Assembly: GCA_964501265.1 (NCBI GenBank)
Contig: CAZCSK010000005.1
Coordinates: 1,944-65,943 of the forward strand
Direction: 5' to 3'
DNA length: 64,000 bases
Source: an uncultured Actinomycetes bacterium
GTDB lineage: Bacteria; Actinomycetota; CADDZG01; JAHWKV01
Made by a program: the position numbers and the translations under genes
The notes under the pieces: model-generated
Database searches by the model: none
Seen by the model: only the letters and a program-made list of their open reading frames with translations
What the model was told of the DNA's origin: nothing
Shown: positions 1,296 through 62,838 of the stretch, piece after piece
How positions within the stretch are numbered: the stretch's first letter is position 1
Layout: each line of letters starts with the position of its first letter

Positions 1296-2419
1296 TTGGT
1301 GGGCGCCTGCATTACTATGCGCGCGACTTCCTCAGCCGCCTTTGGCCTTGCAAAGCTACGAAATGCCTCACCCATGGTATCCAGTAAGGCGTCGTTGAAC
1401 AGCGTCTTGGAGACGGCGGCGGCCAATATCTCGGGGTTAAGATCTGCATCCTGGATCATCATTGCTCCGCCGATGCCAGCGATTATCTCCGCGTTTCGCC
1501 GTTGATCGTCGTCCAAAGCATTGGGCAACGGAACCAGGATCGAGGGCAGCCCCCAGGTCGCCAATTCTGAGATCGTCGAAGCGCCAGCGCGGCTGAGGCA
1601 AAGGTCTGCACAGGCGTAGGCCAGGTCCATGCGGTCGGTGTACCCGACGATTTTCCAGACCATCCGTTCCGGCGAGTTCATGGTCTCGATGGTGCTGGTG
1701 GCTTCCGCCAGCTTCGCCTCGCCCACCAGGTGAAGGACCTGCAGCTGTTTGTCTTTGAGCAATTCAAAGGCGCCGAAAGCTAAAGTGTTTATGCGGAGCG
1801 CTCCCTGGCTTCCGCCGGTGACAAGAAGAGTCTTTGTGGTGGAATCCAAACCGAAATGATCGTAAGGCTCGCGTTGCAACTCTAAAGAGTCGGGGTCCGC
1901 ATGAACCCTACGTGCGGCATTCACGATACCCGCTCTCACGGGATTGCCCGTGAAGATCGCCCTCGCAAAATGCTCTTCCGTCCCCGGAAAGCTGACCGCC
2001 ACATGCTTGGCGAATCGGGCAGACAATCGATTGGCGAATCCGGGCACCGAGTTTTGTTCATGAAGTACCAACGGACATCGTAGGAGCGCCGCCGCGAACG
2101 CGGCGGGAAGGCTCACATACCCACCCATTCCCAGCACGACCTGCGGACGGAATCGCAGAAACACAATGGAGCAACGAAGGGTCGCCAACCCAAGCCGAAA
2201 CGTTGCTCGAACGTTGCGCCATGTAACCCCTCCACGCCCTCGGCTGATTACCTTGACCTTTGCGAACGCGAATCCACTTTCACCCACGATTCGGGATTCC
2301 GGTCCTCGTGGGGTCCCGATGAACAGAACCTCTGCCCCCAGATCACGAAGAACTTCAGCAACCGCGAGTCCCGGAGACAGGTGTCCGGTTGTTCCCCCTG
2401 CAGCTATTGCAACCCTCAC
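1292..2419 (-). CDS. murG: Undecaprenyl-PP-MurNAc-pentapeptide GlcNAc transferase
   Basis: AAGGTTGH, GMGGYVS, HEQN, GNPVR, GGSQGA, SRAGAST motifs. Start is GTG 2419, or GTG 2505 if one base is missing. Confidence 0.96.
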   Translation of the reverse strand: MRVAIAAGGTTGHLSPGLAVAEVLRDLGAEVLFIGTPRGPESRIVGESGFAFAKVKVISRGRGGVTWRNVRATFRLGLATLRCSIVFLRFRPQVVLGMGGYVSLPAAFAAALLRCPLVLHEQNSVPGFANRLSARFAKHVAVSFPGTEEHFARAIFTGNPVRAGIVNAARRVHADPDSLELQREPYDHFGLDSTTKTLLVTGGSQGALRINTLAFGAFELLKDKQLQVLHLVGEAKLAEATSTIETMNSPERMVWKIVGYTDRMDLAYACADLCLSRAGASTISELATWGLPSILVPLPNALDDDQRRNAEIIAGIGGAMMIQDADLNPEILAAAVSKTLFNDALLDTMGEAFRSFARPKAAEEVARIVMQAPTK

Positions 2420-2497
2420 GGGGGGGTTCGGGGGGGTAGCAGCCCCCTTAGGTAACTCGCGCGCGCCAGAAGGTGCGGACCCCCTGAGATCAACTGG
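2419..2497 (+). repeat. G-rich palindromic element, copy A (ftsW/murG junction)
   Basis: GGGGGGGTTCGGGGGGGTAGCAGCC...GCGCGCCAGAAGGTGCGGACCCCCTGAGATCAAC. Aligns by eye with five other copies. Confidence 0.92.
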
Positions 2498-2504
2498 GTA
2501 GTCA

Positions 2505-3707
2505 CTAGAATCTGGAGCGGCGCGCAACAGACAAGAGAATCCCAATTCCCGCCATCGTGAACACGAGTGACGACCCGCCGTACGAGATCAGGGGTAGCGG
2601 TACACCGGTGATCGGAAGCAGGCCCGAGACGGCGCCTATATTGATCAGGGCTTGGATGCCTAGCCATCCGGTGATGCCACCGGCCACCAGCGTTCCAAAC
2701 CGGTCGGGCGCAGCGCGCGCAATCCGAATGCCGAGATAGATCACGAGAGCAAACATGACGAGAACGAACAAGGTTCCCGCGAGACCCAGTTCCTCACCGA
2801 GGATCGCAAAGATGAAATCCGTATGCGCGTTAGGGACGTAGGACCATTTTTGGCGGCTCGCACCAAGTCCCACGCCGAACCACCCGCCACTTCCAAGGGC
2901 GATCTGGCCCTGGATGGTGTGATAGCCGGTATTGAGCGGATCAGCCCAGGGATTCAGAAAAGAAAAAACGCGGGCCCGCCGATAGCCTTCAGTAAGAGCC
3001 AGGACGGCGACGGCCACGAACCCGGTGGAAGCCATCATCGCCAAATGTCGCAAGCGTGCTCCCGCCAAATACAGGACGATAAACACGCATGCCGCGCAGA
3101 TGACGGCAGTCCCGAGGTCCGGCTGCGCGATCACCAGGAGGCAGGCAAGCCCGGTCGCGGGCAATATGGGCACTGCCATTTCACGGCCTTCGAGGATCTT
3201 TCGTCCTTTGAGGTCCAGGACGTGTGCGCAGAAGATGATCAGTGCAAGCTTTGCCATTTCTGAGGGCTGGATGCTAATAGGACCGGCAATGAGCCACCTG
3301 CTCGATCCCCCGCGAGTCGATCCGATCCCAGGAATCAATACCGCGAAGAGCCCGATAACGCTGAGCCCCATAAACGGCCGCGCCCAGCGCCGAAGTTTCG
3401 TGTGATCGACCCGAGCCAGGATGGCCATCAGGGCCAGCCCTATGACAAATCCAATCGCCTGGCGATAGAAAAACAGAAACGACGATCCATACTTGCGGTA
3501 AGCCTCGATTGATGATGCCGACAGAATCATGACCAGCCCCATCACAGCAAGCACTATTGAGGTGATTGCCAGAACAAGCCCCGGACGCCCGACTAAACGC
3601 CGGGGAGCGGCTACAACCGGGGGGTTCGGGGGGGTAGCAGCCGCCCGGCGGTACGACTTGGGCGCGCCAGAAGCTGCGAACCCCCTGAGATCAACTGGTG
3701 AGCTCAC
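2505..3707 (-). CDS. ftsW: Septal peptidoglycan polymerase FtsW with element-derived N-terminal segment
   Basis: RW...IQPSE.AK, QPDLGT, HTDFIFAILGEELG, GVPLPLISYGGSS. GTG start overlaps the murD stop. Confidence 0.96.
   Translation of the reverse strand: MSSPVDLRGFAASGAPKSYRRAAATPPNPPVVAAPRRLVGRPGLVLAITSIVLAVMGLVMILSASSIEAYRKYGSSFLFFYRQAIGFVIGLALMAILARVDHTKLRRWARPFMGLSVIGLFAVLIPGIGSTRGGSSRWLIAGPISIQPSEMAKLALIIFCAHVLDLKGRKILEGREMAVPILPATGLACLLVIAQPDLGTAVICAACVFIVLYLAGARLRHLAMMASTGFVAVAVLALTEGYRRARVFSFLNPWADPLNTGYHTIQGQIALGSGGWFGVGLGASRQKWSYVPNAHTDFIFAILGEELGLAGTLFVLVMFALVIYLGIRIARAAPDRFGTLVAGGITGWLGIQALINIGAVSGLLPITGVPLPLISYGGSSLVFTMAGIGILLSVARRSRF
3618..3698 (+). repeat. G-rich palindromic element, copy B (in-frame in ftsW 5' end)
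   Basis: GGGGGGTTCGGGGGGGTAGCAGCCGCCCGGCGGTACGACTTGGGCGCGCCAGAAGCTGCGAACCCCCTGAGATCAAC. Confidence 0.93.
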
Positions 3708-5101
3708 GGGCTCATCACCGCTTTCACGAACCTGTCTCCGCGTTCGCCGTAATTCGCGTACTGGTCCCAACTCGCGCATGCGGGAGAAAGAAGTACGGTG
3801 TCCCCTGGTTGCGCGAGTTCGCGCGCAATTCGTACTGCGTCCTCAACGACCTCGGCTCGTCTGCATTCCAGATCACTGAAGATGCTCTCCAGTTCTTCGG
3901 CCGTCTCGCCCATCACGATAATCGCCCTAAGCGCGGGACCAGCTTCCCGAAGAACTGACAGGTCCAGGCCCCTGGCAAGACCTCCGGCAATTAGAATGAC
4001 ATCGTTCAGGCCCGCTAGAGCTCTTAGTGTGGCGTGAGGGTTCGTGGCTTTGGAGTCGTCGATAAACCGGACGCCGGCGCGTTCACCCACGTCCGCCATT
4101 CGATGGGGCAATCCTTCAAACACCTTCACCGCTTCTGCAATCGTCTTCAAATCGACCCCTGCTTTGATCGCGGCCAAACCGGCCGCCAAGACATTCTCGA
4201 CATTGTGGGCCCCTTTAACGCGGATATCGGAGAGACTCACGAAGGGACTGGCTCCTTCTGGCCCTGAAATCACGAGTTGGTCTCCCTCAACTCCGGCCGC
4301 CGCCCACACGTCTCGATCTAGATTCTGCCGGATCGATTTGCGAATCTGTGCGGGACTTTCCAACCCAAATGCAGCAATCGAGGCCTGAGTTTGCGATCCA
4401 ATCGCCGCACATCCCTTATCGTCGAACTTCATTACCAGCAGATCCGTCTCGTCCTGATTCGCGACGATCCTTGCCTTGGCTTCGAGATACTGCTCGTAAC
4501 CCGCATGCCAATCGTAATGATCGTCCGCTACGTTTAGGACAATCGCGATATGGGGCCGGAAGCGATCGATGAATGCCAGCTGCTGGCTCGAGACTTCACA
4601 GACAAAGACAGTGCCCGCGGGGCAAGTTCGTGCGGCCTCGACCAGCGGAATGCCGATGTTGCCCACCGCCGCGGCGGGCAGGCCCGCGACTTCGAGAACA
4701 GATGCGAGCAACGTGGTAGTGGTCGTCTTGCCGTTGGTCCCGGTGACGGCAAAGATGGGGCCCGAAACAAGTCTGGACCCAAGCTCGATCTCGCTCCACA
4801 CAGCCATCCCCCCTCGGAGCGCGCCGGCAATCAGGGGGTTGGACGGAGGAACGCCCGGACTGGGAATCACCAGATCGGCCCAGTCCAAAAGACCGGCATC
4901 GTGATCGCCGAACGTCACCTCGGCCCCCAATTCACGAAGCTCGACAGCGGTCACAAGATGTGCGTCGTCCTCAATGGCTTCCGTGACATGCACCGCTGCG
5001 CCGAGGTCGAGCAGAGCCTCGGCCGTAGCCTTGCCGGTCACCTTGCCCAATCCGATGACGATTACGCGCCGATGGCCTTCGAGTACGCCCGCAGGCGTCA
5101 T
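3704..5101 (-). CDS. murD: UDP-MurNAc-L-Ala--D-Glu ligase
   Basis: SPGVP, GTNGKTTT, EVSSQQL, DDSKATN, LLSPACASWDQY..Y.ERG. Confidence 0.96.
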   Translation of the reverse strand: MTPAGVLEGHRRVIVIGLGKVTGKATAEALLDLGAAVHVTEAIEDDAHLVTAVELRELGAEVTFGDHDAGLLDWADLVIPSPGVPPSNPLIAGALRGGMAVWSEIELGSRLVSGPIFAVTGTNGKTTTTTLLASVLEVAGLPAAAVGNIGIPLVEAARTCPAGTVFVCEVSSQQLAFIDRFRPHIAIVLNVADDHYDWHAGYEQYLEAKARIVANQDETDLLVMKFDDKGCAAIGSQTQASIAAFGLESPAQIRKSIRQNLDRDVWAAAGVEGDQLVISGPEGASPFVSLSDIRVKGAHNVENVLAAGLAAIKAGVDLKTIAEAVKVFEGLPHRMADVGERAGVRFIDDSKATNPHATLRALAGLNDVILIAGGLARGLDLSVLREAGPALRAIIVMGETAEELESIFSDLECRRAEVVEDAVRIARELAQPGDTVLLSPACASWDQYANYGERGDRFVKAVMSP

Positions 5102-6156
5102 CAGTCGACTCCGCCCACCGCAATAAATTCCGCGTAGAACAGGCCGAGCGCAAACGCAACCGCCAATCCCGTGAGAATCCAGAACCGCACTATTACAGTG
5201 AACTCCGGCCACCCTCGGAGTTCGAAGTGGTGATGGATGGGCGCCATCAAGAATACGCGTCTTCGAAAGACCTTGAAGGAGATCACTTGCATAAGGACCG
5301 ATGAAACCTCAACAACGTAAAGACCGCCGAGCACGATCAGCAAGAGCTGCGTGTTCGTAAGGATGGCGAGTGACGCCATGGCGCCACCCAGTGCGAAAGA
5401 CCCGGTATCGCCCATGAAAATTTTTGCTGGCGCCGCGTTCCACCACAAGAATCCCGCAGAGGCTCCGAGCATGCTGGCAGCGACCATCGCGAGGTCAAGG
5501 GAATGAGGCGCCTCATAACAGCCGTCTTGCAAAGAGAGCAAACATGAGTGCCGCGCCTGCCAGAAGGCGATTACGACGTAGGCGACCATCACGAGAGCTC
5601 CCGAGCCGCAGGCCAGCCCGTCGAGCCCATCGGCCAGATTCACCCCGTTGGAGGTGGCGGACATGATTATGAATATCCAGGCTACGAAGAGCACATTGAC
5701 ATCAAGCCCCACACCAAGTGGCCTCACAAAAGAAACTTCCGCAACGGCCTGCGAATAATTGGACAAGTAGGCGAATCCCACCGCGATGATGAGTTGGCCC
5801 AAGAACTTAGTTCTCTTGTTGAGACCCAACGACCGCCTTCTTGAGATCTTGATGTAATCGTCGACGAACCCGAGCAATCCCATCGCAGCAATCGTGCCGA
5901 CCGCGAGAAGTCCGCTCGCTGAGAATGGCTCGAAACCATCAGGGCGCAGATGGGCAAGCAGATAGGCAATGAAGGCCCCAGCGACGATTACTAGCCCGCC
6001 CATGGTCGGGGTGCCGCTCTTTACGAAGTGGGCACGCGGGCCATCTTCTCGCACGTTCTGACCGTATTTCCGACTCTGCAGCGTTTTGATTGCAAGAGGT
6101 GTGCCGATCAGCACGAACACCAAAGCAAGTCCCGCAGCGAGCAGAATGCTGATCAT
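5101..6156 (-). CDS. mraY: Phospho-MurNAc-pentapeptide transferase
   Basis: KSGTPTMGG, DDY.K, NGVNLADGLDGL, IFMGDTGS, MAPIHHHFE. Confidence 0.97.
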   Translation of the reverse strand: MISILLAAGLALVFVLIGTPLAIKTLQSRKYGQNVREDGPRAHFVKSGTPTMGGLVIVAGAFIAYLLAHLRPDGFEPFSASGLLAVGTIAAMGLLGFVDDYIKISRRRSLGLNKRTKFLGQLIIAVGFAYLSNYSQAVAEVSFVRPLGVGLDVNVLFVAWIFIIMSATSNGVNLADGLDGLACGSGALVMVAYVVIAFWQARHSCLLSLQDGCYEAPHSLDLAMVAASMLGASAGFLWWNAAPAKIFMGDTGSFALGGAMASLAILTNTQLLLIVLGGLYVVEVSSVLMQVISFKVFRRRVFLMAPIHHHFELRGWPEFTVIVRFWILTGLAVAFALGLFYAEFIAVGGVD

Positions 6157-7562
6157 CGGGCCACGCCTTGATTCGGGGGGTTCGTTGCCTCTGTCGCGCT
6201 GAACCATTTGGCTACTTTTTCGAGACCGGTCACTCGGGATCCTTTGATCAGTAGCAAATCGCCGGGTCCGAGCGTTCCAACCGCCTCGGGGATCTCTTCT
6301 GCGGTGCGTATTTCCGTGATCTCATCGAATCCTGCTTCCCGGGCCCCGGTGGCAATGGCCCGCGCTGTGTCTCCAACGACAATTAACTTCGTAACAAGCG
6401 ACCCCGCAAGCCGCCCTGCACTCAAATGCTCGCTCTCTTCGATCGCACCCAACTCCGCCATATGCCCCAGAACTGCGATAAACCTTCCCTCACGGGCGAG
6501 GAAGGCGCACGTTCGCAGGGCCGCCGCCAAAGAGTCCGGGTTTGAGTTGTATGCGTCATTGACAATCATGGCCTCACCGATCTTGGAGATTGCCATCCGA
6601 GAGGGCGACGGCTTCACATCCTCCAGCCCGGCCCGGCAGTCGAGCAAAGTTAAACCAAGGGCTAAGGCCGCGGCGGAAGCGGCGAGTGCATTCACAACCT
6701 GATGCTCACCCGCAATTGGCAGCGCCACCGAGACCGACTCCCCCTCACATTGCATTCGAAATGTTGCGCGCGCTTGGGAATCCAGCCGGATCGATTCGCC
6801 CCGAAGCCAGGATTCTTCGCCGCGCCCGAATGTCAGAATGGCGGCCTGAGTGTTTCTCCCCATTTTAATAACTCGATCGTCGTCGGCGTTTAACACCGCG
6901 GTGCCACCCTCCGGCAAAGATGCCACTAGTTCCGCCTTTGTTGCCGCTATCGCCTCTCGGGAGCCGAATTCTCCGAAATGAGCAACCCCGACATTGGTGA
7001 CGACGCCGACCCATGGACGCGCGTACTCGCATAGCTGAAGAATCTGGCCCGTCCCACGAGCGGCCATCTCACAAATCACGACTTCGGTGTCGATACCAGC
7101 CTGCAAAAGAGTGAGTGGAACGCCGATCTCGTTGTTGTAGGAACGCGGAGCATACGCGGTCCTCATGGTTCTCGAGGTAATCGCAGCAAGCATGTCCTTG
7201 GTTCCGGTTTTTCCCGTCGAACCTGTGATGCCCACAACTACCGGATCGATTGTGTCCCTTACCCAGGCCGCCAGCCGGACGAGCGCTGCGACGGCATCGG
7301 GCACAACAAGTTGCGGAAGTGAAACCTCGGGCACTTCGCGAGTCACCAACGCGCCCGCAGCACCCCGCAGGGCTGCTTCCCGCAAGTACCGGTAAACGTC
7401 CACGTCGGCACCTTCGAGGGCAACAAACAGATCACCGCGCTCTATCGTCCTCGAATCAATCGAAATCGACTTCGTCTCGATCTCGAAGTCAACAGAGGGG
7501 TCTGGCTCGTTGACCTCGCGAGCGTCCAGTATTCGGGCGATTTGTGAGAGTTGGAGTCTCAT
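6153..7562 (-). CDS. murF: UDP-MurNAc-tripeptide--D-Ala-D-Ala ligase
   Basis: GITGSTGKT.TK, SYNNEIGVPLT, NDAYN.NP.S, LGHMAELG, KGSR. Confidence 0.96.
   Translation of the reverse strand: MRLQLSQIARILDAREVNEPDPSVDFEIETKSISIDSRTIERGDLFVALEGADVDVYRYLREAALRGAAGALVTREVPEVSLPQLVVPDAVAALVRLAAWVRDTIDPVVVGITGSTGKTGTKDMLAAITSRTMRTAYAPRSYNNEIGVPLTLLQAGIDTEVVICEMAARGTGQILQLCEYARPWVGVVTNVGVAHFGEFGSREAIAATKAELVASLPEGGTAVLNADDDRVIKMGRNTQAAILTFGRGEESWLRGESIRLDSQARATFRMQCEGESVSVALPIAGEHQVVNALAASAAALALGLTLLDCRAGLEDVKPSPSRMAISKIGEAMIVNDAYNSNPDSLAAALRTCAFLAREGRFIAVLGHMAELGAIEESEHLSAGRLAGSLVTKLIVVGDTARAIATGAREAGFDEITEIRTAEEIPEAVGTLGPGDLLLIKGSRVTGLEKVAKWFSATEATNPPNQGVAR
6167..6199 (-). repeat. Degenerate right half of the element at the murF 3' end
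   Basis: Minus strand GCGCGACAGAGGCAACGAACCCCCCGAATCAAG versus copy C GCGCGCCAGAAGCTGCGAACCCCCCGAATCAAG. Confidence 0.75.
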
Positions 7563-9010
7563 CGCATCTTTCGAAGAGCGTCGGCCGCGACCAACCGATC
7601 ATCGAAGTCGATCGTTCGATCGGCGAATTCTTGGCCCGTCTCATGGCCCTTACCCGCGATGACAACAACGTCGCCATCTCTTGCTTCGCCTAGAGCGCGC
7701 CGGATGGCCTCGGCGCGATCAGAGATGATTTCGTACCCAAGCGGAGGCGGCGATTCCGCAAGACCTTTCTCAATTTCTCTCAGAATTTGCAACGGATCCT
7801 CGCTTCTTGGGTTGTCGGAGGTCGCAAACACCAGATCGGCCCCCCGGCCCGCAACCTCGCCCATCAGGGGTCGTTTACCTGCATCGCGATCTCCCCCACA
7901 CCCAAAAACGGCAATGACGCGCCCCTGGCCAATCCCGCGAGCGGCGGCAAGGACTTCTGCCAGTCCGTCGGGCGTGTGGGCGTAATCCACAATCACGGCG
8001 AACGGTTGCCCGGCGTCAACTTTCTCGAAGCGCCCCGGAACCCCGGCCAATGACTCAAGCCCCGAAGCGATGTCGCCCGGCGCAATCCCCAAGATATTGG
8101 CCGCCGCCGCAGCGCCGAGTGCGTTCATCACATTGAATGCACCCGGAATCCTGATGTGAATGTCGATGTCGAGGTCCCTTCCGGCAGCGCGAAAGGAGGA
8201 ACCTTGCGCTCCGAGTTGTATGTCCTCGGCCACAAGGTCGGCGTTGCCAGCGCCAAAAGTCGTTACCGGAATGTCGACCTCCGACGCCAGCCGTCTGCCC
8301 CACTCATCGTCGACGTTCACCGCAGCCGCGTGAGCCAGATCGGTAAATAAGAATCGTTTCGCCAGGTAGTAATTTCCCATCGTATGGTGGAAGTTCAGAT
8401 GATCCTGGCTGAGGTTTGTGAACACTGCAACATCGAAGTCAGTGCCATCGGTCCGGCCCTGAGCAATTCCCTCTGAAGTCACTTCCATGGCGCATCTCGT
8501 TACACCTGCGCTTACCATCTCGCTGAGCAATCGTTGCAGGTCGATCGCCTCCGGGGTTCCCCGAGAGGCCGGCAGGATTTTCGAACCGATCCTTCTTTCG
8601 ATAGTTGAGAGCAAACCAGACACGTCACCAGCTGCTCGGAAGATCGCGTCCAGCATGTAGACGGTTGTCGTCTTGCCGTTCGTGCCGGTAACTCCTGCCA
8701 TGCTCAACTTAGCGCTTGGTAGACCAAAGAAATCGTTGGCCACAAGAGCCATCGCGCGCCGAGGATCTTTAACGATCAGTTGAGGGACCACAGTTTGGAC
8801 TTTGCGCTCGCAAACAAGCGCACTCGCTCCGGCCGTTACCGCTTGCTCGGCGAATAGATGACCGTCAGTTACGGCGCCGGGAAAGCAGAAAAAGAGACTG
8901 CCCGCGCTTACCTCCCGCGAGTCGTATGCAAGATCGACGATTTCAACGCTCTGCTCAGCCTCTGCTAGCGCAGAGGCCCCGAGGATGTCGGCAATTCGAC
9001 CCAGCTTCAT
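7559..9010 (-). CDS. murE: UDP-MurNAc-dipeptide--diaminopimelate ligase
   Basis: GVTGTNGKTT, FTNLSQDHL, VDYAHTPD, DNPR (mDAP-type), AGKGHE. Alternative start at 9034. Confidence 0.96.
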   Translation of the reverse strand: MKLGRIADILGASALAEAEQSVEIVDLAYDSREVSAGSLFFCFPGAVTDGHLFAEQAVTAGASALVCERKVQTVVPQLIVKDPRRAMALVANDFFGLPSAKLSMAGVTGTNGKTTTVYMLDAIFRAAGDVSGLLSTIERRIGSKILPASRGTPEAIDLQRLLSEMVSAGVTRCAMEVTSEGIAQGRTDGTDFDVAVFTNLSQDHLNFHHTMGNYYLAKRFLFTDLAHAAAVNVDDEWGRRLASEVDIPVTTFGAGNADLVAEDIQLGAQGSSFRAAGRDLDIDIHIRIPGAFNVMNALGAAAAANILGIAPGDIASGLESLAGVPGRFEKVDAGQPFAVIVDYAHTPDGLAEVLAAARGIGQGRVIAVFGCGGDRDAGKRPLMGEVAGRGADLVFATSDNPRSEDPLQILREIEKGLAESPPPLGYEIISDRAEAIRRALGEARDGDVVVIAGKGHETGQEFADRTIDFDDRLVAADALRKMR

Positions 9011-9048
9011 TGGAGCAAGCCTAGCGCCCCGCACTTAGTGCGGAGGCA

Positions 9049-10803
9049 CTAATCGGGGACGCTGGTTCTTGCCTGCGCATCGCTTGGTTGGACGACGTCT
9101 CCGGAACGGTCCGGGGTCGAAGAGGGGACCCCTTCACGAGGAAGGAGCGACCCCGGGCCGATCCCGAGACGTCGCAGCGCGAATTGCATGACTTCCTTGA
9201 ATATGGGGGCCGCGGTCACGCCCCCCCAGATGGGAGAGGGTTCGTCGAGGATCACTCCCACGACGAGCTTGGGGTCGGCCGCCGGGGCAAAGCCGATAAA
9301 GCTGCCGATGTAACCCGAATAGCCCGCCGCATCGGTTCGCGGCTTTTGCGCCGTCCCCGTCTTGCCGGCGACCTGATAGCCATCGATTGCCGCCTCGCGG
9401 CCGGTGCCGTACTTGTCTGCCGTGACCCCTATCAGGATCTCGGTCAGTTGCCGCGCAGTGGTCGGACTGATTACACGTCGCGCTGGGAGGCTCGGGGGGG
9501 CGCTTTCGTCAAGGACGAGCCGCGGCGAAACCGCCAGACCCCCGTTGGCGACTGTTGAGTAGACCTGCACGATCTGCATCGCCGTGACGGCGACCCCCTG
9601 GCCGATCGCGATCGTGGGCAGTGAGGACGATGACCACGTGTTTGGTTTGGGCACTATCCCAGCCCCCTCGCCGGGAAATCCCAGTCCGGTGGGCTTTCCA
9701 TAGCCGAATTTCATGAGAGATTCGTAGAGCCTGTCCTTACCGACCTGCTGCGCCACCTTGATGACACCCACATTCGATGATCGTTGCAGGACTTCAGCAA
9801 AAGTAATGTCCCACACGGCGTGAGGATGGGCATCGTGAAAGACCTTCGTCCCGACCTTCAGGTTGTCGGGCACCCGCATGACGTCCGCTGGTCGAACTGT
9901 TCCCGACTCCAAAGCCGCTGCGGCCATGATTACCTTGTTCGCTGACCCGGGCTCGTATATGTCGATCAGGGCGCGGTTGCGTCTGTCCCCATCCGCGCTC
10001 GACTTGACATCATTGGGATCAAACGTCGGCAGGTTAGCCATTGCCAGAATCTCTCCGGTCTCGGGGTTCGCCACTACGACAGTTCCGCCTTTGGCACCCC
10101 AAGCCTCGATCCCCTTTGCCAATGCCGTCTCCGCAACGAACTGGATCTGCTTGTCGATGGTGAGGCGGAGGTCGCCCCCGGAAACCGGCTGACGCACCAT
10201 CGACTTTCCCGAAGGGATCGGCCTGCCCTGCGTATCGATTTCCGACAGGCTGTACCCGGGCTGCCCTGCCAATACTTTGTCGTAGCGGCTCTCCAGACCG
10301 GCAAGGCCCGAGTTCTCGAAGCCAGTAAAGCCAACGATGTGTGAGGCAAGTTGTCCGGAGGGATAGACGCGCTTTGATTCAGCCACAACACCGATCCCTG
10401 GGATCTGCATGGACTTAACCTTGGCGCCCAACGCGGGCTCAATCTTTCTCGCGAGATACACAAAACCCGTGTCGCGTCTCAGCTTCTCCTCGATCGCCGC
10501 CTGATCGACACCGAGGACGGGTGCAACAAGGACGGCCGCAGCTGAGGCGTCGGTAATAAAGCGTGGATTCGCATAAACGGTGTTCATCTCAATGGAGATC
10601 CCCAGATCAGCGCCGTTTCGGTCAGAGATCGAGCCGCGCTGAGCCTCAAGGACAGTCCTGCGCTCTCGCTGAACGGCCGCGAGCGCGGTGAACCGATCCT
10701 TCCCCATCACCTGGAGCCAAAACAGGCGCCCCGTCATCACACCCAGACTCATCAAGAACGCTACGAGGAGGGCTATCAACCTAAAGGCTGATCTTGCCCT
10801 CAT
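9049..10803 (-). CDS. ftsI: Septal penicillin-binding transpeptidase
   Basis: N-terminal TM, RGSI.DR, EPGSANK (SxxK), SSN, KTGTAQ. Confidence 0.94.
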   Translation of the reverse strand: MRARSAFRLIALLVAFLMSLGVMTGRLFWLQVMGKDRFTALAAVQRERRTVLEAQRGSISDRNGADLGISIEMNTVYANPRFITDASAAAVLVAPVLGVDQAAIEEKLRRDTGFVYLARKIEPALGAKVKSMQIPGIGVVAESKRVYPSGQLASHIVGFTGFENSGLAGLESRYDKVLAGQPGYSLSEIDTQGRPIPSGKSMVRQPVSGGDLRLTIDKQIQFVAETALAKGIEAWGAKGGTVVVANPETGEILAMANLPTFDPNDVKSSADGDRRNRALIDIYEPGSANKVIMAAAALESGTVRPADVMRVPDNLKVGTKVFHDAHPHAVWDITFAEVLQRSSNVGVIKVAQQVGKDRLYESLMKFGYGKPTGLGFPGEGAGIVPKPNTWSSSSLPTIAIGQGVAVTAMQIVQVYSTVANGGLAVSPRLVLDESAPPSLPARRVISPTTARQLTEILIGVTADKYGTGREAAIDGYQVAGKTGTAQKPRTDAAGYSGYIGSFIGFAPAADPKLVVGVILDEPSPIWGGVTAAPIFKEVMQFALRRLGIGPGSLLPREGVPSSTPDRSGDVVQPSDAQARTSVPD

Positions 10804-12286: not shown

Positions 12287-12289
12287 CTA

Positions 12290-12418
12290 TCACCTGAAGG
12301 CTTGAACGACCAGCAGGGCCATACCAAGGTACGCGCCCAGGGTCGTCGCAACCATCGCCAGAAGGAAGAAAGTCTCGGAAACTTCCTTCATTAATACACG
12401 AGCCGGCACTGCGTCCAT
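12290..12418 (-). CDS. Small 42-aa hydrophobic protein
   Basis: MDAVPARVLMKEVSETFFLLAMVATTLGAYLGMALLVVQAFR. SD AAGGGGAG upstream. Stop lies 3 nt before the rsmH start. Confidence 0.6.
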   Translation of the reverse strand: MDAVPARVLMKEVSETFFLLAMVATTLGAYLGMALLVVQAFR

Positions 12419-15751: not shown

Positions 15752-15758
15752 GTCTTGA

Positions 15759-24987: not shown

Positions 24988-24988
24988 G

Positions 24989-56031: not shown

Positions 56032-56793
56032 CTACTTTAGCGATAGCGCGCGACGGGTCCTTCGAAAATATCCGCAGTTGACTACGTGAGTCTTTCCAAT
56101 GTGCTTCGACGACACTAGCGGGTGATGGATGTGACCAAACAAGGCCTTTGCAGGCTGCACGTCTCGAATGTATTCTAGGAGCCGCGATGAGCCTTGCTCA
56201 GCGCGATTCGCAAGAATGTCGAAGGTCATTTCCGGAACGGCCGGAGGCATGTGAGAGCAGATGACTTCTACCGGACCGAGTTGATCGATCTTTCGATTGA
56301 ACTCTTCTTCCGGAATCTCGCCCTGGACTTGCAGTGGCGTTGGCAGTCCCCCTCCTACAAATCCGACTCTGTATCCGTTGATCTCGACTACCTTGCCGTC
56401 GGGGAATTCAATATGGGCCGGGGCAAGATCTTTGACCAGGGTGGGCGAGTCCACATTTCCCATGATCATGTAGGTAGTCTCGGGAAGTACGGAGAACACC
56501 TCTTTGTAGGCGCGTGACATCGCCTGCGTGAATTTTTCTTTCATTTCTTGCTCCCGGCCCTCCCGCCGCTCGGCCATCCGCTTACGGGCTTCTTCGAAGC
56601 GCCGTTGGGCTCGCAATTCGATAATGTCGAGTACGGTCTCGCGGCCGTAGACTTCAACCAGTATTCCCTCGGTTGCGGCGTAATCGATGAGATTCACCAA
56701 GTCCCCGAGCAACAGCAGCGTATCGGTGGGATCCACTTGGTCTTTGAGGGCCCCCGTCGCTGAATGAAGATCGGATATAACTTTGACCGTCAT
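56032..56793 (-). CDS. Metallophosphoesterase
   Basis: SDLH, LGDL, GNVD, SHMPP, FGHIH. Confidence 0.9.
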   Translation of the reverse strand: MTVKVISDLHSATGALKDQVDPTDTLLLLGDLVNLIDYAATEGILVEVYGRETVLDIIELRAQRRFEEARKRMAERREGREQEMKEKFTQAMSRAYKEVFSVLPETTYMIMGNVDSPTLVKDLAPAHIEFPDGKVVEINGYRVGFVGGGLPTPLQVQGEIPEEEFNRKIDQLGPVEVICSHMPPAVPEMTFDILANRAEQGSSRLLEYIRDVQPAKALFGHIHHPLVSSKHIGKTHVVNCGYFRRTRRALSLK

Positions 56794-57536
56794 CGTCCTG
56801 CGACTAGGGCTGTCAGCATTCCCAATACGGCCGCCGCAGCAAGAGTAAGCGCCGCGTACCGCACTACCTTGCCTGTGAGGAATTGCGTCGCGTCGGGATC
56901 GTCCGCCAGAGCCCGGGCATCGAGCACGCTCACCACAATCAAACCGATGAAGGCTATCCAAAACATGTACTGGATGAAGTCGAGGAGCTTGTTTGCCCCC
57001 GCAATAAAGATCGCCGAAAGCAGCCACCAGGCTCCAAGTGTCATCCGGATGATTCCCTGGCCGACCTGGCGCAAGTACAGATGGCCCCCGCCGGGTATCA
57101 ACGATAGAGCAGCGGCGATGTTGGGATTCTGGTCTTGTGCTCGGTGGGTTTCGACCGGGGTCCGAAACATGTCGTAAAGGCTGGCGCCGCACACGCCGCA
57201 GTTGTTTTGGTCGAAAGAGTTGTCTCTGGCGCAGCTCGGGCAAGTCCAAACAAGTTCATCGCCGACTTTGCGCAGCGGGGGTCTGGGGGGTAGCAGCCGC
57301 CCCTCGGTAGGACTTGGGCGCTCCAGAAGCTGCGAAGTCGGCTGGGGGGGATAGACGGGGGCCGGGGGCGGAGCCATCGGCTGGGGGGGATAGACGGGGG
57401 CCGGGGGCGGAGCAACTACGTTGACGATTGGTGGAGCAGAAGTAAAAACGTTCGGTCTGCCGTCGAACTTTTCCAGACAAAGGGCGCACCAGCGGGCGCT
57501 TTCCGAATTCGGGGTGTTGCAGTTGGGGCAATTCAT
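56790..57536 (-). CDS. Double zinc-ribbon membrane protein
   Basis: CPNC..WCALC and CPSC..CGVC, Pro-rich linker, AALSLIPG.GHLY and TMs. Confidence 0.75.
   Translation of the reverse strand: MNCPNCNTPNSESARWCALCLEKFDGRPNVFTSAPPIVNVVAPPPAPVYPPQPMAPPPAPVYPPQPTSQLLERPSPTEGRLLPPRPPLRKVGDELVWTCPSCARDNSFDQNNCGVCGASLYDMFRTPVETHRAQDQNPNIAAALSLIPGGGHLYLRQVGQGIIRMTLGAWWLLSAIFIAGANKLLDFIQYMFWIAFIGLIVVSVLDARALADDPDATQFLTGKVVRYAALTLAAAAVLGMLTALVAGR
57276..57336 (+). repeat. G-rich palindromic element, copy D (in-frame, right end truncated)
   Basis: CGGGGGTCTGGGGGGTAGCAGCCGCCCCTCGGTAGGACTTGGGCGCTCCAGAAGCTGCGAA. Confidence 0.88.
57338..57413. repeat. 39-nt tandem duplication (APPPAPVYPPQP x2)
   Basis: TCGGCTGGGGGGGATAGACGGGGGCCGGGGGCGGAGC at 57338 and 57377. 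Confidence 0.95.
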
Positions 57537-57543
57537 GCCCCAA

Positions 57544-58323
57544 CTATCCCCCAAAACGTCTTATTCGAGCCGAATATTCCTCGACCGCCTCGACGACGTC
57601 AGTCTCGGTAAGGTCGGGAAAGAACTTGGGTGAGAAAATCATCTCAGCGTACGCGGCTTGAATCGGCAAGAAACCTGACGATCGCATTTCGCCCGAGGTC
57701 CGGAGCACGATGTCGGGATTTGGATGCGGTTGTCCCTCGGTGTCGAGGTAGGCCCTGATGTCGAGACTCGTCGCTGCCGCACCGCTTAACTGCGCTTGCG
57801 CTGCCATCGCCCTCGCCGCTCTTTGAATCTCGTCAGCTCCCCCATAGTTGATCGCCAGGTTGACCACGTTTCGTTCGAAAGCGGCGGTCTTGTCTTGAAT
57901 CTCGCGCAGGGCGGTTACGAGCGAGTGCGGCATTCCGTCCGCAAAGCCCGCCGCCGCGGCCGTTTCCTCGGCTCCTTCGGGGACCCCGTCAACACGTCCC
58001 AGGTGAACGACGCGCACTTCCTCTTCTATTGCCTCCGGCAAGAGGTCGTCGAGCCATTTCTCATATAGAAGCATCAGCGCAGAGACTTGATCCGGCGATC
58101 GCCGCCAGTTCTCCGTCGAGAACGCCCAGACCGTCATGGTGTGTATTCCGATCCGACGGCAAAAACGGGAGAGGCGTTTTGCGACTTCAAGGCCTGCCCT
58201 GTGCCCTTCCATCACCGACAAGTCGGCTTCTTCGGCCCACCGGCGATTACCGTCGGGAATGACTGCGAGATGATGCGGAATGGTCGCTGTGGCCAGGCGT
58301 TTGATTGCTGCTTGTACTTCCAT
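57544..58323 (-). CDS. uppS: cis-prenyltransferase (undecaprenyl diphosphate synthase)
   Basis: DGNRRWA, AFSTENW.R, NYGG, RTSGE.R.S.F. Confidence 0.93.
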   Translation of the reverse strand: MEVQAAIKRLATATIPHHLAVIPDGNRRWAEEADLSVMEGHRAGLEVAKRLSRFCRRIGIHTMTVWAFSTENWRRSPDQVSALMLLYEKWLDDLLPEAIEEEVRVVHLGRVDGVPEGAEETAAAAGFADGMPHSLVTALREIQDKTAAFERNVVNLAINYGGADEIQRAARAMAAQAQLSGAAATSLDIRAYLDTEGQPHPNPDIVLRTSGEMRSSGFLPIQAAYAEMIFSPKFFPDLTETDVVEAVEEYSARIRRFGG

Positions 58324-58333
58324 TACCTGACGC

Positions 58334-59392
58334 TCAAGAAAGTTCGGGCACGCGGGCAACGACGCTGTGCGCCAGTTTCTCCAGCGTGGAGCGAGCGGCA
58401 CAATCCGGGACGGTTATGAGCGCACGCAACGCCTCATCGAGATACATTTGGGCGCGCGACATTGCCTTTGCAAAAGATCCCGCCGCTACCGTTGCGGATA
58501 GCACCGCATCCACGTCGACTTCAGGAGCCGCCAGCAGATCAGCGATTGCAGCATCGGCTGCCACGGCATAGATCACGGGCAACGTGTAAACGCCGTCGCG
58601 CAAGTCGGTGCCGGGCGCCTTTCCCAGGGCCTCGGGGCTGGCCGCAAGATCCAAGAGATCGTCAGCAATCTGAAATGCAAATCCGAGGTTGCGACCAAAC
58701 ATTTGCATTGCATCTACCACGCTTGACGGACATTCACCCAGGGACGCGCCGAATAAAGTGCATGTTTCCATCAATGACACCGTTTTACCGTCGATCGTCG
58801 CAAAGTAGTGCTCCTCTGACCGATTCGGATCGTAGATCGACTGCAGCTCCGTCAATTGGCCGGCTACGACTTTCGCAATTGCGGTCGCCAGAACCTCCGG
58901 TACTATCCCGCCTACATTCGCCGCGAGGCTCGAAGCCTTCGCGAAGAGATAATCGCCAGCAAGGATCGCCACCTTGTTGCCCCACATCTGATTGGCGCTC
59001 GTTACGCCCCTGCGCGTAGTGGCCTCATCGATGACGTCGTCGTGATAAAGCGTCGCCAGGTGCGTGAGTTCGGCAGCCGCCGCAGTGTAGTCGACGTTCT
59101 GATTGGGTCCTTCCCCGAGTTGCGAAGCCAGCAAAGTGAGAGCCGGACGGATTCGCTTACCCCCGGCCCGCGCCAAATGCGTTGTGAACTCCGTGAATAC
59201 GTCTCCTATCCCCCGTTGATTTGGGGGGTTCGCAGCTTCTGGCGCGCCTGCCTCATACCTCCGGGCCGCCGCTACCCCCCCGGGCCCCCCGGCCACCGCC
59301 GCCGTATCCACCATTATTTTTTCGACCCGTTCGAGGTCGGAGGAAATGGGATCCAGCACGTCGCCAGCTTGATCTCGGAAAAGCGCTTCCAT
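58334..59392 (-). CDS. trans-polyprenyl diphosphate synthase with in-frame element insertion
   Basis: GGKRIRP, HDDVID...RRG, LAGD, KT, FQIADDLLD. Confidence 0.93.
   Translation of the reverse strand: MEALFRDQAGDVLDPISSDLERVEKIMVDTAAVAGGPGGVAAARRYEAGAPEAANPPNQRGIGDVFTEFTTHLARAGGKRIRPALTLLASQLGEGPNQNVDYTAAAAELTHLATLYHDDVIDEATTRRGVTSANQMWGNKVAILAGDYLFAKASSLAANVGGIVPEVLATAIAKVVAGQLTELQSIYDPNRSEEHYFATIDGKTVSLMETCTLFGASLGECPSSVVDAMQMFGRNLGFAFQIADDLLDLAASPEALGKAPGTDLRDGVYTLPVIYAVAADAAIADLLAAPEVDVDAVLSATVAAGSFAKAMSRAQMYLDEALRALITVPDCAARSTLEKLAHSVVARVPELS
59215..59292 (-). repeat. G-rich palindromic element, copy E (in-frame in polyprenyl synthase)
   Basis: Minus strand GGGGGGCCCGGGGGGGTAGCGGCGGCCCGGAGGTATGAGGCAGGCGCGCCAGAAGCTGCGAACCCCCCAAATCAAC. 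Confidence 0.93.
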
Positions 59393-59400
59393 TAGTAAAC

Positions 59401-59847
59401 CTAGATCCCGCAAATCTGAATCAGAACTTCGCGGTCGCGGGGGCAGTCGAAGTCGACAAACATGATCCTCTGCCAGCGGCCGAGAAGAAGTGCACCTTCT
59501 CCGACAGGAATGTATTCGGAAGCATGACCCGCAATCATGCGGCGGATGTGGGCATGGGCGTTCTTAGTTTCGTCGTCGTGCAAGTTTTCAGTGCGAATGT
59601 TGAAGTCGTCATGCATGTAGTTGTCGAGCTTGGGCACGAGTCGCTGCATCGTGGCATCGACATCGGCAAGAAGACCGGTCTCCTTCTCATTCACCAAAAC
59701 GGCACACGTCGTGTGCGGTGAAAATACTAGGGCGTAGCCCTCTTCTATTCCTGAATCCAGGAGGGCTTTCTCGACGTCGGCGGTGATGTCAATCACGTCA
59801 AACTCCCGAGTAGTTCTTATCTGCAACTTGTCACGGTGGATCTTCAC
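59401..59847 (-). CDS. YjbQ/UPF0047 family protein
   Basis: DIT..V, HTT, NE, NAHAH, LG.WQ....DFD.PR.R. Confidence 0.9.
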   Translation of the reverse strand: MKIHRDKLQIRTTREFDVIDITADVEKALLDSGIEEGYALVFSPHTTCAVLVNEKETGLLADVDATMQRLVPKLDNYMHDDFNIRTENLHDDETKNAHAHIRRMIAGHASEYIPVGEGALLLGRWQRIMFVDFDCPRDREVLIQICGI

Positions 59848-59874
59848 GGGGCTCCCTTCGGTTGAGGCAAGATA

Positions 59875-60804
59875 TCAAGTGACGCTTGCCGGCAGCGGAA
59901 AATGTACGTCCTCTATTGCAACGCTTACTTCTTCGACTTGCACTATGCCTCTGTCGGCGAGATATTTGACTACGCGGTCGACCAAGACTTCCGGCGTTGA
60001 GGCCCCCGAGGAAATGCCGATGATTGCGGCGCTCTCGATCCAATTCGGATCTATCGACCTCTCATCTTCGATCAAAAAGGCCTTGGTTCCCTCGTCTCGG
60101 GCCACCTCTACAAGACGGTTCGAATTCGATGAATTCTGAGAACCTACGACGAGCACAAGGTCCGCTCGCTGTGCTATCTCTTTCACCGCCTGTTGGCGGT
60201 TCTGACTCGCATAGCAAATGTCGTCTTTGGTGGGACCAGCGATACGTGGGAACTGCCGTCGGAGCGCCTCGACGACCTCTCTTGTGTCGTCCACGGCCAG
60301 CGTCGTCTGAGAGATGAAAGCAACGTTGTCTGGGTCGGCAACCTTTAGCCCGGCCACGTCCTCGGGGCGCTCCAAGACGATCGTCTGATCGGGCGCCTGG
60401 CCGGAGGTCCCTTCGACTTCCTCGTGCCCATTGTGTCCAATTAGAAAGATGGTTCTACCCTGCTTGGCGAACCTGCGCGCTTCAACGTGGACTTTGGTTA
60501 CAAGGGGGCACGTGGCGTCGATCACAGTGATGTTTCGGGCTTTGGCGTTTGCGTAAACGGTCGGCGCAACGCCATGGGCGGAGAGCACACAAATCGATCC
60601 CGGCGGGACATCTTCTTCCGATTCGACAAAGATCGCTCCCTTTTCTTCGAGTTGCGTCACAACGTGACTGTTGTGGACGATCTGCTTGCGAACGTAGACC
60701 GGCGGGCCGTAGCGGTCGAGCGCGCGCTGCACGATTTCAACGGCGCGGTCCACTCCCGCGCACCAGCCGCGGGGGGCGGCGATCAAGATCCTCTTGTCCG
60801 TCAT
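59875..60804 (-). CDS. ispH: HMBPP reductase
   Basis: PRGWCAGVDRA, IVHN, DATCPLV.KVH, DDICYA..NRQ, SSNS. Confidence 0.97.
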   Translation of the reverse strand: MTDKRILIAAPRGWCAGVDRAVEIVQRALDRYGPPVYVRKQIVHNSHVVTQLEEKGAIFVESEEDVPPGSICVLSAHGVAPTVYANAKARNITVIDATCPLVTKVHVEARRFAKQGRTIFLIGHNGHEEVEGTSGQAPDQTIVLERPEDVAGLKVADPDNVAFISQTTLAVDDTREVVEALRRQFPRIAGPTKDDICYASQNRQQAVKEIAQRADLVLVVGSQNSSNSNRLVEVARDEGTKAFLIEDERSIDPNWIESAAIIGISSGASTPEVLVDRVVKYLADRGIVQVEEVSVAIEDVHFPLPASVT

Positions 60805-61889
60805 TTCGTAGCTGCCGTCGTCTGACTCGCCGCCACTTTGATTGCTTCTTCGATGAGGGCGTCGACCATCTTGTCCGCAGGGACCCACCCAATCTGCTTG
60901 CCCTTCGAGAAAAGAAGTCCGCGGCCCGGTCCCGCGGCAATCCCCACGTCGGCCTCGCGGGCCTCGCCTGGCCCGTTGACTTCGCAGCCCATGACGGCTA
61001 CCTGAATAGGAGGAAGTTTCAGTTCGAGCAACCTGTCCTGCACCTGCTTTGTCAATGCGATCACGTCGAGTTCCGCTCTTCCGCACGATGGGCATGCCAC
61101 AAGATCGAGGAGTGACTTGCGAAGTCCGAGAGCTTGAAGAATCTGCTTCGCAATCTTGATCTCCTCGACCGGGTCGGCTGTCAGCGAAACGCGGATCGTG
61201 TCCCCTATGCCTTCAGCGAGCAGTGTACCGATACCAATAGCCGACTTCATGATGCCAAACGGCGGGGGCCCCGCCTCGGTCACACCCAAGTGCAGCGGGT
61301 AGTCGACCTTGCTCGCAAGAATGCGATATGCCTCGATCATCTGCGGAACGTTCTGGTGCTTGACAGAAATCTTTATATCGCCGAATCCTTCATCCTCGAG
61401 AATCCGAACCTCGTCGAGCGCGCTTTCTACAAGCGCTTCGGGAGTTGGCCCGCCGTACTTTGCGATCAAGCGCTTGTCCAGGGACCCGGCGTTTACCCCC
61501 ACTCTTATGGGGACGCCGCGATCCTTCGCCTCCCTGACGACAGTTCGTATCTGATCGGGATCGCGGATGTTGCCGGGATTCAGCCGCAACCCTTGGACGC
61601 CCGCCTCCAGCGCCAACATGGCCAACCGGTACGAAAAGTGGATGTCGGCGATGATCGGGACACCGGCCTCCTTTACGATCTCGGGTAGCGCCCGAGCGTC
61701 TTTCTCGTGAGGAACCGCTACCCGGACGATGTCCCCGCCCTGCGTGGCGATGGCGTGCGCCTGAATCAGCGTGGCTTGCACGTCTTCGGTCTTGGTAATG
61801 GTCATCGATTGAATCGAAACGGGGGCCCCGCCCCCGATGGGGACGTTGCCGACTCGCAACTGTCTGGACTGCCTGCGCTCGGTGATCAT
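60801..61889 (-). CDS. ispG: HMBPP synthase
   Basis: QSMT, ADIHF, NPGNI, PLHLGVTEAG, CPSCGR, MGC.VNGPGE. Confidence 0.97.
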   Translation of the reverse strand: MITERRQSRQLRVGNVPIGGGAPVSIQSMTITKTEDVQATLIQAHAIATQGGDIVRVAVPHEKDARALPEIVKEAGVPIIADIHFSYRLAMLALEAGVQGLRLNPGNIRDPDQIRTVVREAKDRGVPIRVGVNAGSLDKRLIAKYGGPTPEALVESALDEVRILEDEGFGDIKISVKHQNVPQMIEAYRILASKVDYPLHLGVTEAGPPPFGIMKSAIGIGTLLAEGIGDTIRVSLTADPVEEIKIAKQILQALGLRKSLLDLVACPSCGRAELDVIALTKQVQDRLLELKLPPIQVAVMGCEVNGPGEAREADVGIAAGPGRGLLFSKGKQIGWVPADKMVDALIEEAIKVAASQTTAATK

Positions 61890-61925
61890 CCACCCCCATG
61901 CTCCCAGGCAAACGAGAACTGAGCA

Positions 61926-62020
61926 AGTGCTCAAAACGTCCGTCCTCGCTGAAACGGAGGAATCGCGACCCCCTACGACGCTGTGGGTCCGGAGGACGGG
62001 GGTCGCGCAATTCGAGCACT
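61926..62020. other. Structured intergenic segment with terminal inverted repeats
   Basis: AGTGCTC...GAGCACT enclosing CGCGACCCCC...GGGGGTCGCG. Confidence 0.55.
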
Positions 62021-62079
62021 GGCCAACGTAGGAGCAAAAACTCGCCCCTGGTTCTAAGGTTAGGCAATATCATGGACGA

Positions 62080-62298
62080 ATGTTGCTCCCCTCGCCTACG
62101 GATCTTGAGCAATGGGAGGCGGAGTTCGACGCTGCCCGGCAACGACCGCTCAGGATCCGGCTGCACTACAGCTTCATCCGGACCTACAAACCGGTTTTGG
62201 ATGATGCCCCATTCCGATCATTTGCAACGACCGCTCAATATCGAAAGTGGTGCGAGCAACATCTCCCCAGCTGGCTGGGCTATGGCCGCGAGGTTTGA
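62080..62298 (+). CDS. Small hypothetical protein upstream of the nucleotidyltransferase
   Basis: 72 aa, YKPVLDDAPFRSF...YR.WCE..LP.WLGY. Overlaps the next start. Confidence 0.6.
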   Translation: MLLPSPTDLEQWEAEFDAARQRPLRIRLHYSFIRTYKPVLDDAPFRSFATTAQYRKWCEQHLPSWLGYGREV

Positions 62299-62838
62299 CT
62301 ACCCCCAAGCGGAGGAGATTCAGGACTGCTTTAGTCGTCACGGAGTTCGTTACCTTTTTATAGGCAAGGCGGGGGCGATTCTGTTGGGATTTCCCGATAC
62401 CACCAAGACGCTGACCTTTTTGTCGATAAGACAAAGCAAAATGCCGCTGCCTTAGTCGACGCGCTTTCAGATCTCGGATTTGAACTCACCGATCAGCAAG
62501 CAGGCGAGATCCGCGGCAGCGGGGGGCCCGGGGGGGTAGCAGCCCCCTTAGGTACGGACCCGGGCGCGCCAGAAGCTGCGAACCCCCCGAAGTCAGATAA
62601 AGACTTTATTCAACTAAAGAACGGCCCATTCGACCTTGACTTGATTTTTGCCCCGGACGGTATTGAAAACTTTGAGCAGGCATGGCTTCGCAGGGTTGAG
62701 GTGGAAGGCTTTCCGATATGCCATCCGGATGACATCATCGCAAGTAAGGAGGCCGCCAACCGCGCCCGAGATCGAGAGAGCCTCCCGCGCCTCAGAGCCT
62801 TTCGAGATTACTGGTTACGACAGCCGAGGGATTCGTAA
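62282..62838 (+). pseudogene. Nucleotidyltransferase-like protein with one frameshift and an in-frame element insertion
   Basis: YLFIGK.GAIL.G...T(Q)DADL restored by adding one C near 62404. C-terminal II.SK.AANR..D...L. Confidence 0.75.
62520..62596 (+). repeat. G-rich palindromic element, copy F (in-frame)
   Basis: CGGGGGGCCCGGGGGGGTAGCAGCCCCCTTAGGTACGGACCCGGGCGCGCCAGAAGCTGCGAACCCCCCGAAGTCAG. Confidence 0.93.

Follow-up and report, generated by a model that had tools for sequence, protein, structure and literature searches.

A 78-nucleotide (nt) repeat that recurs in a 64,000-nt stretch of contig CAZCSK010000005.1 (hereafter the window; the contig is labelled C5 here) is best explained, with a probability of roughly 80%, as a non-autonomous selfish mobile repeat that is similar in shape to repetitive extragenic palindromic (REP) sequences and to REP doublets forming hairpins (REPINs), and similar in behaviour to Rickettsia palindromic elements (RPEs). 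The window belongs to the metagenome-assembled genome (MAG) of an uncultured member of the Actinomycetota, which comprises 2.78 Mb in 114 contigs with a completeness of 95.9%. The copy number of the repeat, its fixed length, its in-frame residence in genes, its absence from orthologues, and its exact empty sites are direct observations, from which we infer movement by transposition, possibly on single-stranded DNA, and not by recombination.

Six near-complete copies, named A to F below, had been described in an initial annotation of the window, and all six were recovered by direct reading, repeat grouping (five direct copies and one inverted), alignment, and a permissive nhmmer scan (E-values of 7e-21 to 5e-14). 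The alignment also displays the conserved arms, the variable centre, and the 3-nt shortening of that centre in copy A, as described there. When length was normalised over the near-full copies of the whole genome, the unit was found to be 78 nt, or 26 codons, in 105 of 117 cases, the remainder measuring 75 (1), 77 (4), 79 (5), and 80 nt (2). Read directly from the six window copies, the left arm starts with a run of six G, has two G runs, and then continues with GTAGCAGC; the right arm contains GCGCCAGAAGCTGCGAACCCCCC followed by GA.TCA. The left boundary is sharp, with no conservation upstream of it, and the 3' end reads TCANNT, where conservation extends up to TCA(A/G) and the next two bases are loosely conserved. 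Between the arms lies a variable centre of about 20 nt, of which there are two subtypes; the arms themselves are near-invariant and far better conserved than the centre, both in coding and in non-coding copies.

A GTAG motif at unit positions 16–19 adjoins a 5-bp stem formed by positions 19–23 and 55–59; the motif is present in one arm only, and the stem encloses 31 nt. The arms had been predicted to pair, and positions 19–23 and 55–59 are indeed paired in 92–100% of 192 distinct copies; covariation adds no support among these copies, whose arms vary too little. Positions 1–10 are also pairable with positions 59–68, with positions 7–8 paired in just 48–67% of copies, and a further 10 conserved bases lie beyond the right arm. 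The folding z-scores of the six window copies are modest: one is -2.8, better than all 200 shuffles, and the other five range from -1.8 to +0.2. Comparison of the flanks of 94 solo copies revealed no conserved bases or tetranucleotide 5' of the unit and a preference for G on its 3' side (0.62 at +1 and 0.63 at +2). The tag CGTC is absent from the consensus and from the copies. Rfam, run on the whole window at gathering thresholds, left the repeat unmatched and gave a thiamine pyrophosphate (TPP) riboswitch as its sole match; at permissive thresholds, copy F obtained only a chance match to a microRNA (16.6 bits, where 63 are required). Four of the six frames of the consensus, two on each strand, contain no stop codon.

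Across the genome, a profile built from the six window copies gave 157 matches at E<1e-3, and a core profile of 78 columns gave 163 matches at E<1e-2, 117 of them near-full, covering 11,377 nt or 0.41% of the genome. Chance does not come close to accounting for a family of this size. Head-to-tail arrays are also present, with 21 short periods of 78 (15), 75 (4), and 77 nt (2), 19 of which are multiples of three. On contig C21 (L160, G000:C21:27500-37706, at about 6450–8300 in the locus), arrays flank parB and reach the 3' end of parA, with a run of N inside the array and with trxA, jag, and yidC as neighbours; this region may be origin-proximal. Genes were called with a codon-usage model trained on 749 long open reading frames (ORFs), followed by greedy ORF calling, which yielded 2498 ORFs covering 91% of the genome. 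By this call, 63 of the 163 copies lie inside an ORF with coding sequence upstream (50 ORFs in total), 28 lie near a 5' end where the start is uncertain, 24 overlap a gene end, and 48 are intergenic.

Of the 63 in-ORF copies, 36 are situated mid-protein, at least 40 residues from the start and at least 30 from the stop, 21 lie at most 30 residues from the stop, and for 6 the ORF is cut by the contig end. A stricter test, which asks for coding potential to either side of the unit within one frame, is passed by 31 copy-frame combinations. The best 20 of them come from 18 ORFs, and on comparison with Pfam each of these 18 proved to contain a family. The hosts are Kgd/SucA (two copies), an EgtD-like methyltransferase, EF-G, a Mrp/ParA-type ATPase, enoyl-CoA hydratase, CarB, TrpE, HemD, RecG, PriA, PdxT, a histidine kinase, a STAND NTPase, CoaX, DapB, TruA (two copies), a HelY-like helicase, and a class I aminoacyl-tRNA synthetase. 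For 15 of these ORFs, the insert falls inside a correspondingly lengthened domain match or between two domain matches, and in TrpE, PriA, and CoaX it is terminal or one-sided. Together with window copies B, D, and E, these proteins bear out the earlier claim of in-frame residence in housekeeping proteins, and the three peptide frames quoted with that claim are those in use genome-wide. In HemD (L015, G000:C3:103115-104299), the full unit is preceded by a right-end fragment, with ANPPKSI both before the insert and at its end, which resembles a 1.3-unit array inside the domain. An AlphaFold2 model of DapB with its insert reached a mean predicted local distance difference test score of 52 from an 11-row alignment, too low for use. 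About 17 copies stand at the very end of genes, with the stop codon 0–6 codons past the unit; this stop is often the TGA of ATGA, GTGA, or TTGA overlapping the start of the next gene.

The segments encoded by the repeat are missing from related proteins. Copy E (about 59213–59290, minus strand) lies in frame in a polyprenyl synthase gene (58334–59392, minus strand), at about residues 35–60 of the protein, between the N-terminal helix and the GGKRIRP motif; all 17 published relatives are without it and show a 28-column gap there. Copy B (3619–3696, plus strand, 78 nt) lies inside the coding region of FtsW, whose gene is on the minus strand, and encodes VDLRGFAASGAPKSYRRAAATPPNPP; none of 14 published relatives has these 26 residues. 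It is placed four codons after the FtsW start GTG (3705–3707), which overlaps the murD TGA as GTGA, and upstream of the FtsW Pfam match there are no in-frame starts other than 3707, 3770, and 3779; the alignment with the 14 relatives gives the order start, three residues, 26-residue insert, conserved ...RRL.G.P... tail, and first membrane helix. For EF-G, 13 of 13 homologues at 65–78% identity lack 26–27 columns. For DapB, nine of ten homologues (one about 85% identical and eight more distant) are without the insert and show an exact 26-column gap, and the tenth, 92% identical and from another sample, carries it. In addition, a protein of another organism has two units where the orthologue of the present genome has none. 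The nearest named homologues come from MAGs that carry Actinomycetota names at NCBI, in keeping with the first assignment of the host.

An independently assembled contig from the probable source run (X1, a permafrost metagenome) matches 57384–62550 without differences, copy E included. In run X3, from another study, a contig joins 62520 to 62599 and so skips exactly the 78 nt of copy F, an intergenic copy on the plus strand whose limits (62521–62598) were set by this joint; zero letters are shared at the joint, that is, no target-site duplication is seen there. In a second X3 contig, 59209 is followed by 59285, so that 75 nt are absent at copy E, the shorter side measuring 108 nt, and a contig from run X5, of a third study, replaces 59193–59309 (117 nt) by 33 other letters and is thus 84 nt shorter. 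From these contigs it follows, therefore, that the repeat leaves no target-site duplication, that its copies are polymorphic among close relatives, and that they are not artefacts of assembly. Judged by these sequences, the copies are recent, precise, and polymorphic insertions, and the initial proposal of recent insertion by a selfish element is upheld by both the empty sites in other samples and the homologues without the insert.

Among the 63 in-ORF copies, the four open frames are used 41, 2, 7, and 12 times, and one copy is in a closed frame. Mismatches to the consensus in main-frame coding copies amount to 7.3, 7.6, and 7.3% at codon positions 1, 2, and 3, compared with 10.6, 9.3, and 9.8% in intergenic copies (chi-square p=0.76). 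Since the mismatches are evenly spread over the codon positions, what is constrained is the DNA of the arms, not the peptide, which looks like a passenger. The orientation of the copies favours the gene strand, with 43:20 in coding copies and 30:13 between co-directional genes (p=0.014), which hints at strand-specific insertion or at a cost at the RNA level.

A selfish repeat of this kind would insert precisely and without target-site duplication, and would also build head-to-tail arrays. Its genic copies would survive because the unit equals 26 codons and four of its six frames are stop-free; they would persist where a Gly/Pro/Ala-rich peptide of 26 residues is tolerated, namely in termini, linkers, and loops, and purifying selection would remove the others. 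The inserts are presumably translated. Several points weigh against this explanation. Random insertion followed by filtering explains neither the uneven use of the four open frames nor the gene-strand bias that is seen even between genes, and both counts are inflated by tandem copies, which are not independent. The codon model is home-made and its starts are uncertain, with 28 copies ambiguous at the 5' side and 24 overlapping a gene end; and the 114-contig MAG has an estimated contamination of 2.4%. No transposase in the genome could be tied to the 78-nt repeat, and no autonomous copy with matching ends was found; the sole Y1-type gene, similar to a REP-associated tyrosine transposase (RAYT), is flanked by a different repeat of its own, and in relatives (40 genomes) it is not found together with the 78-nt repeat.

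The distribution of the repeat in relatives bears on how its present form arose. BLAST of copy F found diverged copies, 74–81% identical, in three of the 40 related genomes, namely G005 (same family, other genus), G026, and G022 (same order, unpublished), and no copy in the remaining 37. Fifteen loci of G005, picked from the best BLAST hits, contain 34 copies in arrays with periods of 77–80 nt; of 15 periods, no more than 4 are divisible by three, as against 19 of 21 in the present genome, a contrast that concerns two lineages only. With the codon model trained on the present genome, none of the 34 examined G005 copies is in frame between coding flanks, and among five G026 copies one is, against 31 copy-frame combinations here. 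The contrast points to a reading that is conceivable and still rather doubtful: an ordinary intergenic REP-like family would have given rise, through selection at the level of the element, to a coding-competent variant, the 78-nt form; a 26-codon length and the clearing of stops from four frames would then have opened a genome that is 91% coding to colonisation. Beyond these genomes, a strict two-arm DNA pattern matched 0 viral contigs and 2 JGI metagenome contigs, the pattern being narrow and no gauge of rarity; one of the JGI contigs aligns to the present genome at about 82–85% identity, and the other aligns in the repeat only. When 1.84 billion representatives were searched by phmmer with a peptide of two units, 2 proteins were matched. 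One of the two, protein P0003 (5622 residues), matches in 18 stretches at 30% identity, which may be a low-complexity likeness.

The selfish character of the repeat leaves its mobilising enzyme to be considered, and one candidate lies in the window. The RAYT-like Y1 (HUH) transposase gene at 29733–30227 (minus strand, 165 residues) might mobilise the repeat as a REPIN by single-strand peel and paste, an explanation that we regard as unlikely. It is the sole PF01797 match in the genome, and its translation has an HLH motif and a later tyrosine; the repeat has a GTAG motif, inserts without target duplication, as Y1-type elements do, and keeps its gene-strand orientation bias among intergenic copies. 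Against this stands the different repeat that flanks the gene (29614–29643 and 30317–30400), with three direct 31-nt repeats upstream and one inverted copy downstream. Its core motif is present across the genome in 12 exact copies and another 22 that are near-exact, in many cases as inverted pairs, and constitutes a second, small REPIN-like family. Moreover, homologues of the gene occur in G002, G007, and G008, all without the 78-nt repeat, and no PF01797 match was found in G005, G026, or G022, all with it; nor is there a conserved tetranucleotide 5' of the repeat. This failure to co-occur is not decisive, because Di Nocera et al. report that tyrosine transposase genes and REP families are not obviously correlated (PMC3733652).

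Other possible enzymes were sought in the same genome. Among the partial matches, no left-arm and right-arm pair kilobases apart was found, although the MAG is incomplete and absence is thus unproven. An autonomous parent between the inverted arrays on C21 was considered and rejected, the region being parB/parA with no transposase. The genome has no IS110-type gene and, the RAYT-like gene aside, no classical IS200-type TnpA. Five TnpB-type (Cas12f1-like_TNB) matches lie on contigs C23, C4, C2, C6, and C82 (L137–L141), two of them at contig ends, and no copy of the 78-nt repeat is near any of these five loci. The TPP riboswitch mentioned above (30442–30553, plus strand, 61 bits and above its gathering score) precedes a 574-residue ORF (30522–32246) and is directly beside the upstream repeats of the RAYT-like gene.

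It is less probable still that the repeat is kept for its usefulness to the host, whether as a structured RNA or DNA signal (terminator, mRNA stabiliser, or protein-binding site) or as a peptide module whose function is shared by about 50 proteins. Such a use would fit the much better conservation of the arms than of the centre in coding and non-coding copies, the many copies at operon junctions whose unit is immediately followed by a stop that in many cases overlaps the start of the next gene, and the dominance of one frame (41 of 63). However, orthologues and close strains manage without the copies, which occur in both orientations and in unrelated proteins; codon periodicity, and with it constraint at the amino-acid level, is lacking (p=0.76 against intergenic copies); and the signal has no Rfam family, no covariation, and a fold that beats all 200 shuffles in one copy of six (z of -2.8, the other five from -1.8 to +0.2). 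As for the notion that the copies arose in assembly, or are old conserved stretches of protein instead of insertions, the 18 of 163 copies within 300 nt of contig ends are what an assembly-breaking repeat would give, but the difference-free X1 contig across copy E, the same insert in the 92% identical DapB of another sample, the orthologues without the segments, and the 2 proteins matched among 1.84 billion leave it practically no likelihood.

Returning to the window, copy A (2421–2495, plus strand, 75 nt, its centre shorter by 3 nt) occupies the interval from the ftsW stop (2505–2507) to the murG GTG (2417–2419), both genes being on the minus strand. This GTG gives the textbook MurG start MRVAIAAGGTTGH; the frame through copy A is open from TTG 2527, and the status of the copy is ambiguous, since it is intergenic or, should translation begin at TTG 2527, extends MurG at the N terminus. 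Copy C (24913–24990, plus strand, 78 nt) is intergenic with divergent genes on either side, and its final two bases overlap ATG 24989 of a glycosyltransferase gene. Copy D (57275–57336, plus strand) ends early, covering model positions 3–62, and lies, without breaking the frame, in the linker that joins the two CxxC...CxxC zinc ribbons of the ORF at 56790–57554 (minus strand). A perfect 39-nt tandem duplication (57338–57413) adjoins copy D and encodes a repeated proline-rich stretch in the zinc-ribbon linker; in this region, one X3 contig is 72 nt shorter.

Five half copies had also been listed, and four of them were recovered by the permissive nhmmer scan. A right-arm fragment at 6168–6203 (minus strand, model positions 40–75, E=0.014) lies in the last codons of murF, just upstream of mraY ATG 6156, which overlaps the murF stop; a left-arm fragment at 11178–11215 (plus strand, model positions 3–38, E=0.18) lies inside the ORF at 10800–11294 (minus strand, no Pfam family) in the division and cell wall (dcw) cluster; another at 35304–35332 (plus strand, model positions 8–36, E=0.0065) lies inside the ORF at 35159–35614 (plus strand) and is read as GGVEAPIG; and a left-arm fragment of 18 nt at 52847–52864 (plus strand, E=1) supplies the last residues, TPPNPPG, of a DUF1232 protein (ORF 52839–53216, minus strand). 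The fifth, at 13580, is a 15-nt match with E=17 and was not counted. The division and cell-wall cluster itself occupies positions 1–12300 on the minus strand (murG, ftsW, murD, mraY, murF ... rsmH), has overlapping stop and start codons (GTGA, ATGA), and contains two full and two partial copies of the repeat. A transfer RNA scan found no tRNA.

In-frame insertion of REPs and RPEs is a phenomenon already described (PMC3733652, PMC10969869). [quoted passage not shown] According to the account of Di Nocera et al. (2013), RPEs are tagged by CGTC, and REPs tagged by GTAG or CGTC also occur inside genes, where their dimers encode 20–30 residues; genes for repair, replication, and pseudouridine synthases often harbour such intragenic dimers, whose ends supply stop codons (PMC3733652). 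The phyla named in the part of that account used here are Proteobacteria, Cyanobacteria, Chloroflexi, and the Planctomycetes–Verrucomicrobia–Chlamydiae (PVC) group, and not Actinobacteria (PMC3733652). In the open-access literature, no such element was found described for Actinomycetota or Acidimicrobiia.

The initial annotation had called the repeat RPE-like, which holds for its behaviour and not for its tag. As RPEs are described in these sources, both are dispersed repeats able to form a palindrome, reside to a large share in frame in unrelated housekeeping genes, add a conserved peptide, and have no known transposase; a feature of the RPE type, a hairpin-capable dispersed repeat lying in frame in protein genes, is found here. 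By the same descriptions, RPEs differ in being about 150 bp long, tagged by CGTC, and found in obligate intracellular alphaproteobacteria, whereas the present repeat has 78 nt and GTAG without CGTC, and its host is a free-living soil or permafrost lineage of Actinomycetota. With intragenic GTAG REPs, as far as they are described in the source used, it shares inserts of 20–30 residues, hosts that include repair, replication, and pseudouridine synthase genes, stops supplied by the ends, and frequent placement at gene termini, and its GTAG adjoins a stem that may correspond to theirs; unlike them, it has a single fixed length of 26 codons and asymmetric arms, with GTAG in one, and no cognate RAYT. 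It resembles MITEs, in the outline of the review, in being small, non-autonomous, of high copy number, patchily distributed, and perhaps bounded by a short imperfect terminal inverted repeat, with occasional in-frame fusions (PMC10969869). It differs from them in having neither a target-site duplication nor a parent insertion sequence (IS) with matching ends. Of the features of single-strand transposition of the IS200/IS605 type, the lack of duplication and the asymmetric ends are seen; 5' of the left end, where that type would have a short conserved target, no bases are conserved, and 3' of the repeat only G is preferred, at +1 and +2. Likewise actinobacterial are the mycobacterial interspersed repetitive units (MIRUs); they lie at operon-gene junctions, form tandem arrays, and have frames that link to neighbouring stop and start codons. 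They are intergenic minisatellites and are not known to occur as dispersed single units inside conserved domains. The 78-nt repeat shares with them the actinobacterial host, the operon junctions, and the arrays, but it is also dispersed singly within conserved domains. It can be seen from the above that the repeat is a new member of the REP/RPE kind whose host phylum is also new, whose intragenic share is unusually high, and whose unit is strictly 26 codons long.

Most documented cases in which a selfish repeat has colonised essential genes in frame come from Rickettsia, and fewer concern REPs in a few other phyla; the frequency in Rickettsia could reflect weak selection in an intracellular parasite. 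Here it is seen on a comparable or greater scale, in about 50 proteins including EF-G, FtsW, CarB, RecG, PriA, and DapB, and in a free-living uncultured lineage of Actinomycetota known from permafrost and soil metagenomes, where filled and empty alleles coexist in nature. For annotators, this is a warning that insertions of 26 residues rich in G, P, and A in the proteins of such MAGs are repeat-derived. The element is small, sharply bounded, and inserted without duplication. Its copies amount to a natural insertion-scanning experiment on conserved proteins, and they offer a traceable example of how new peptide segments enter proteins.

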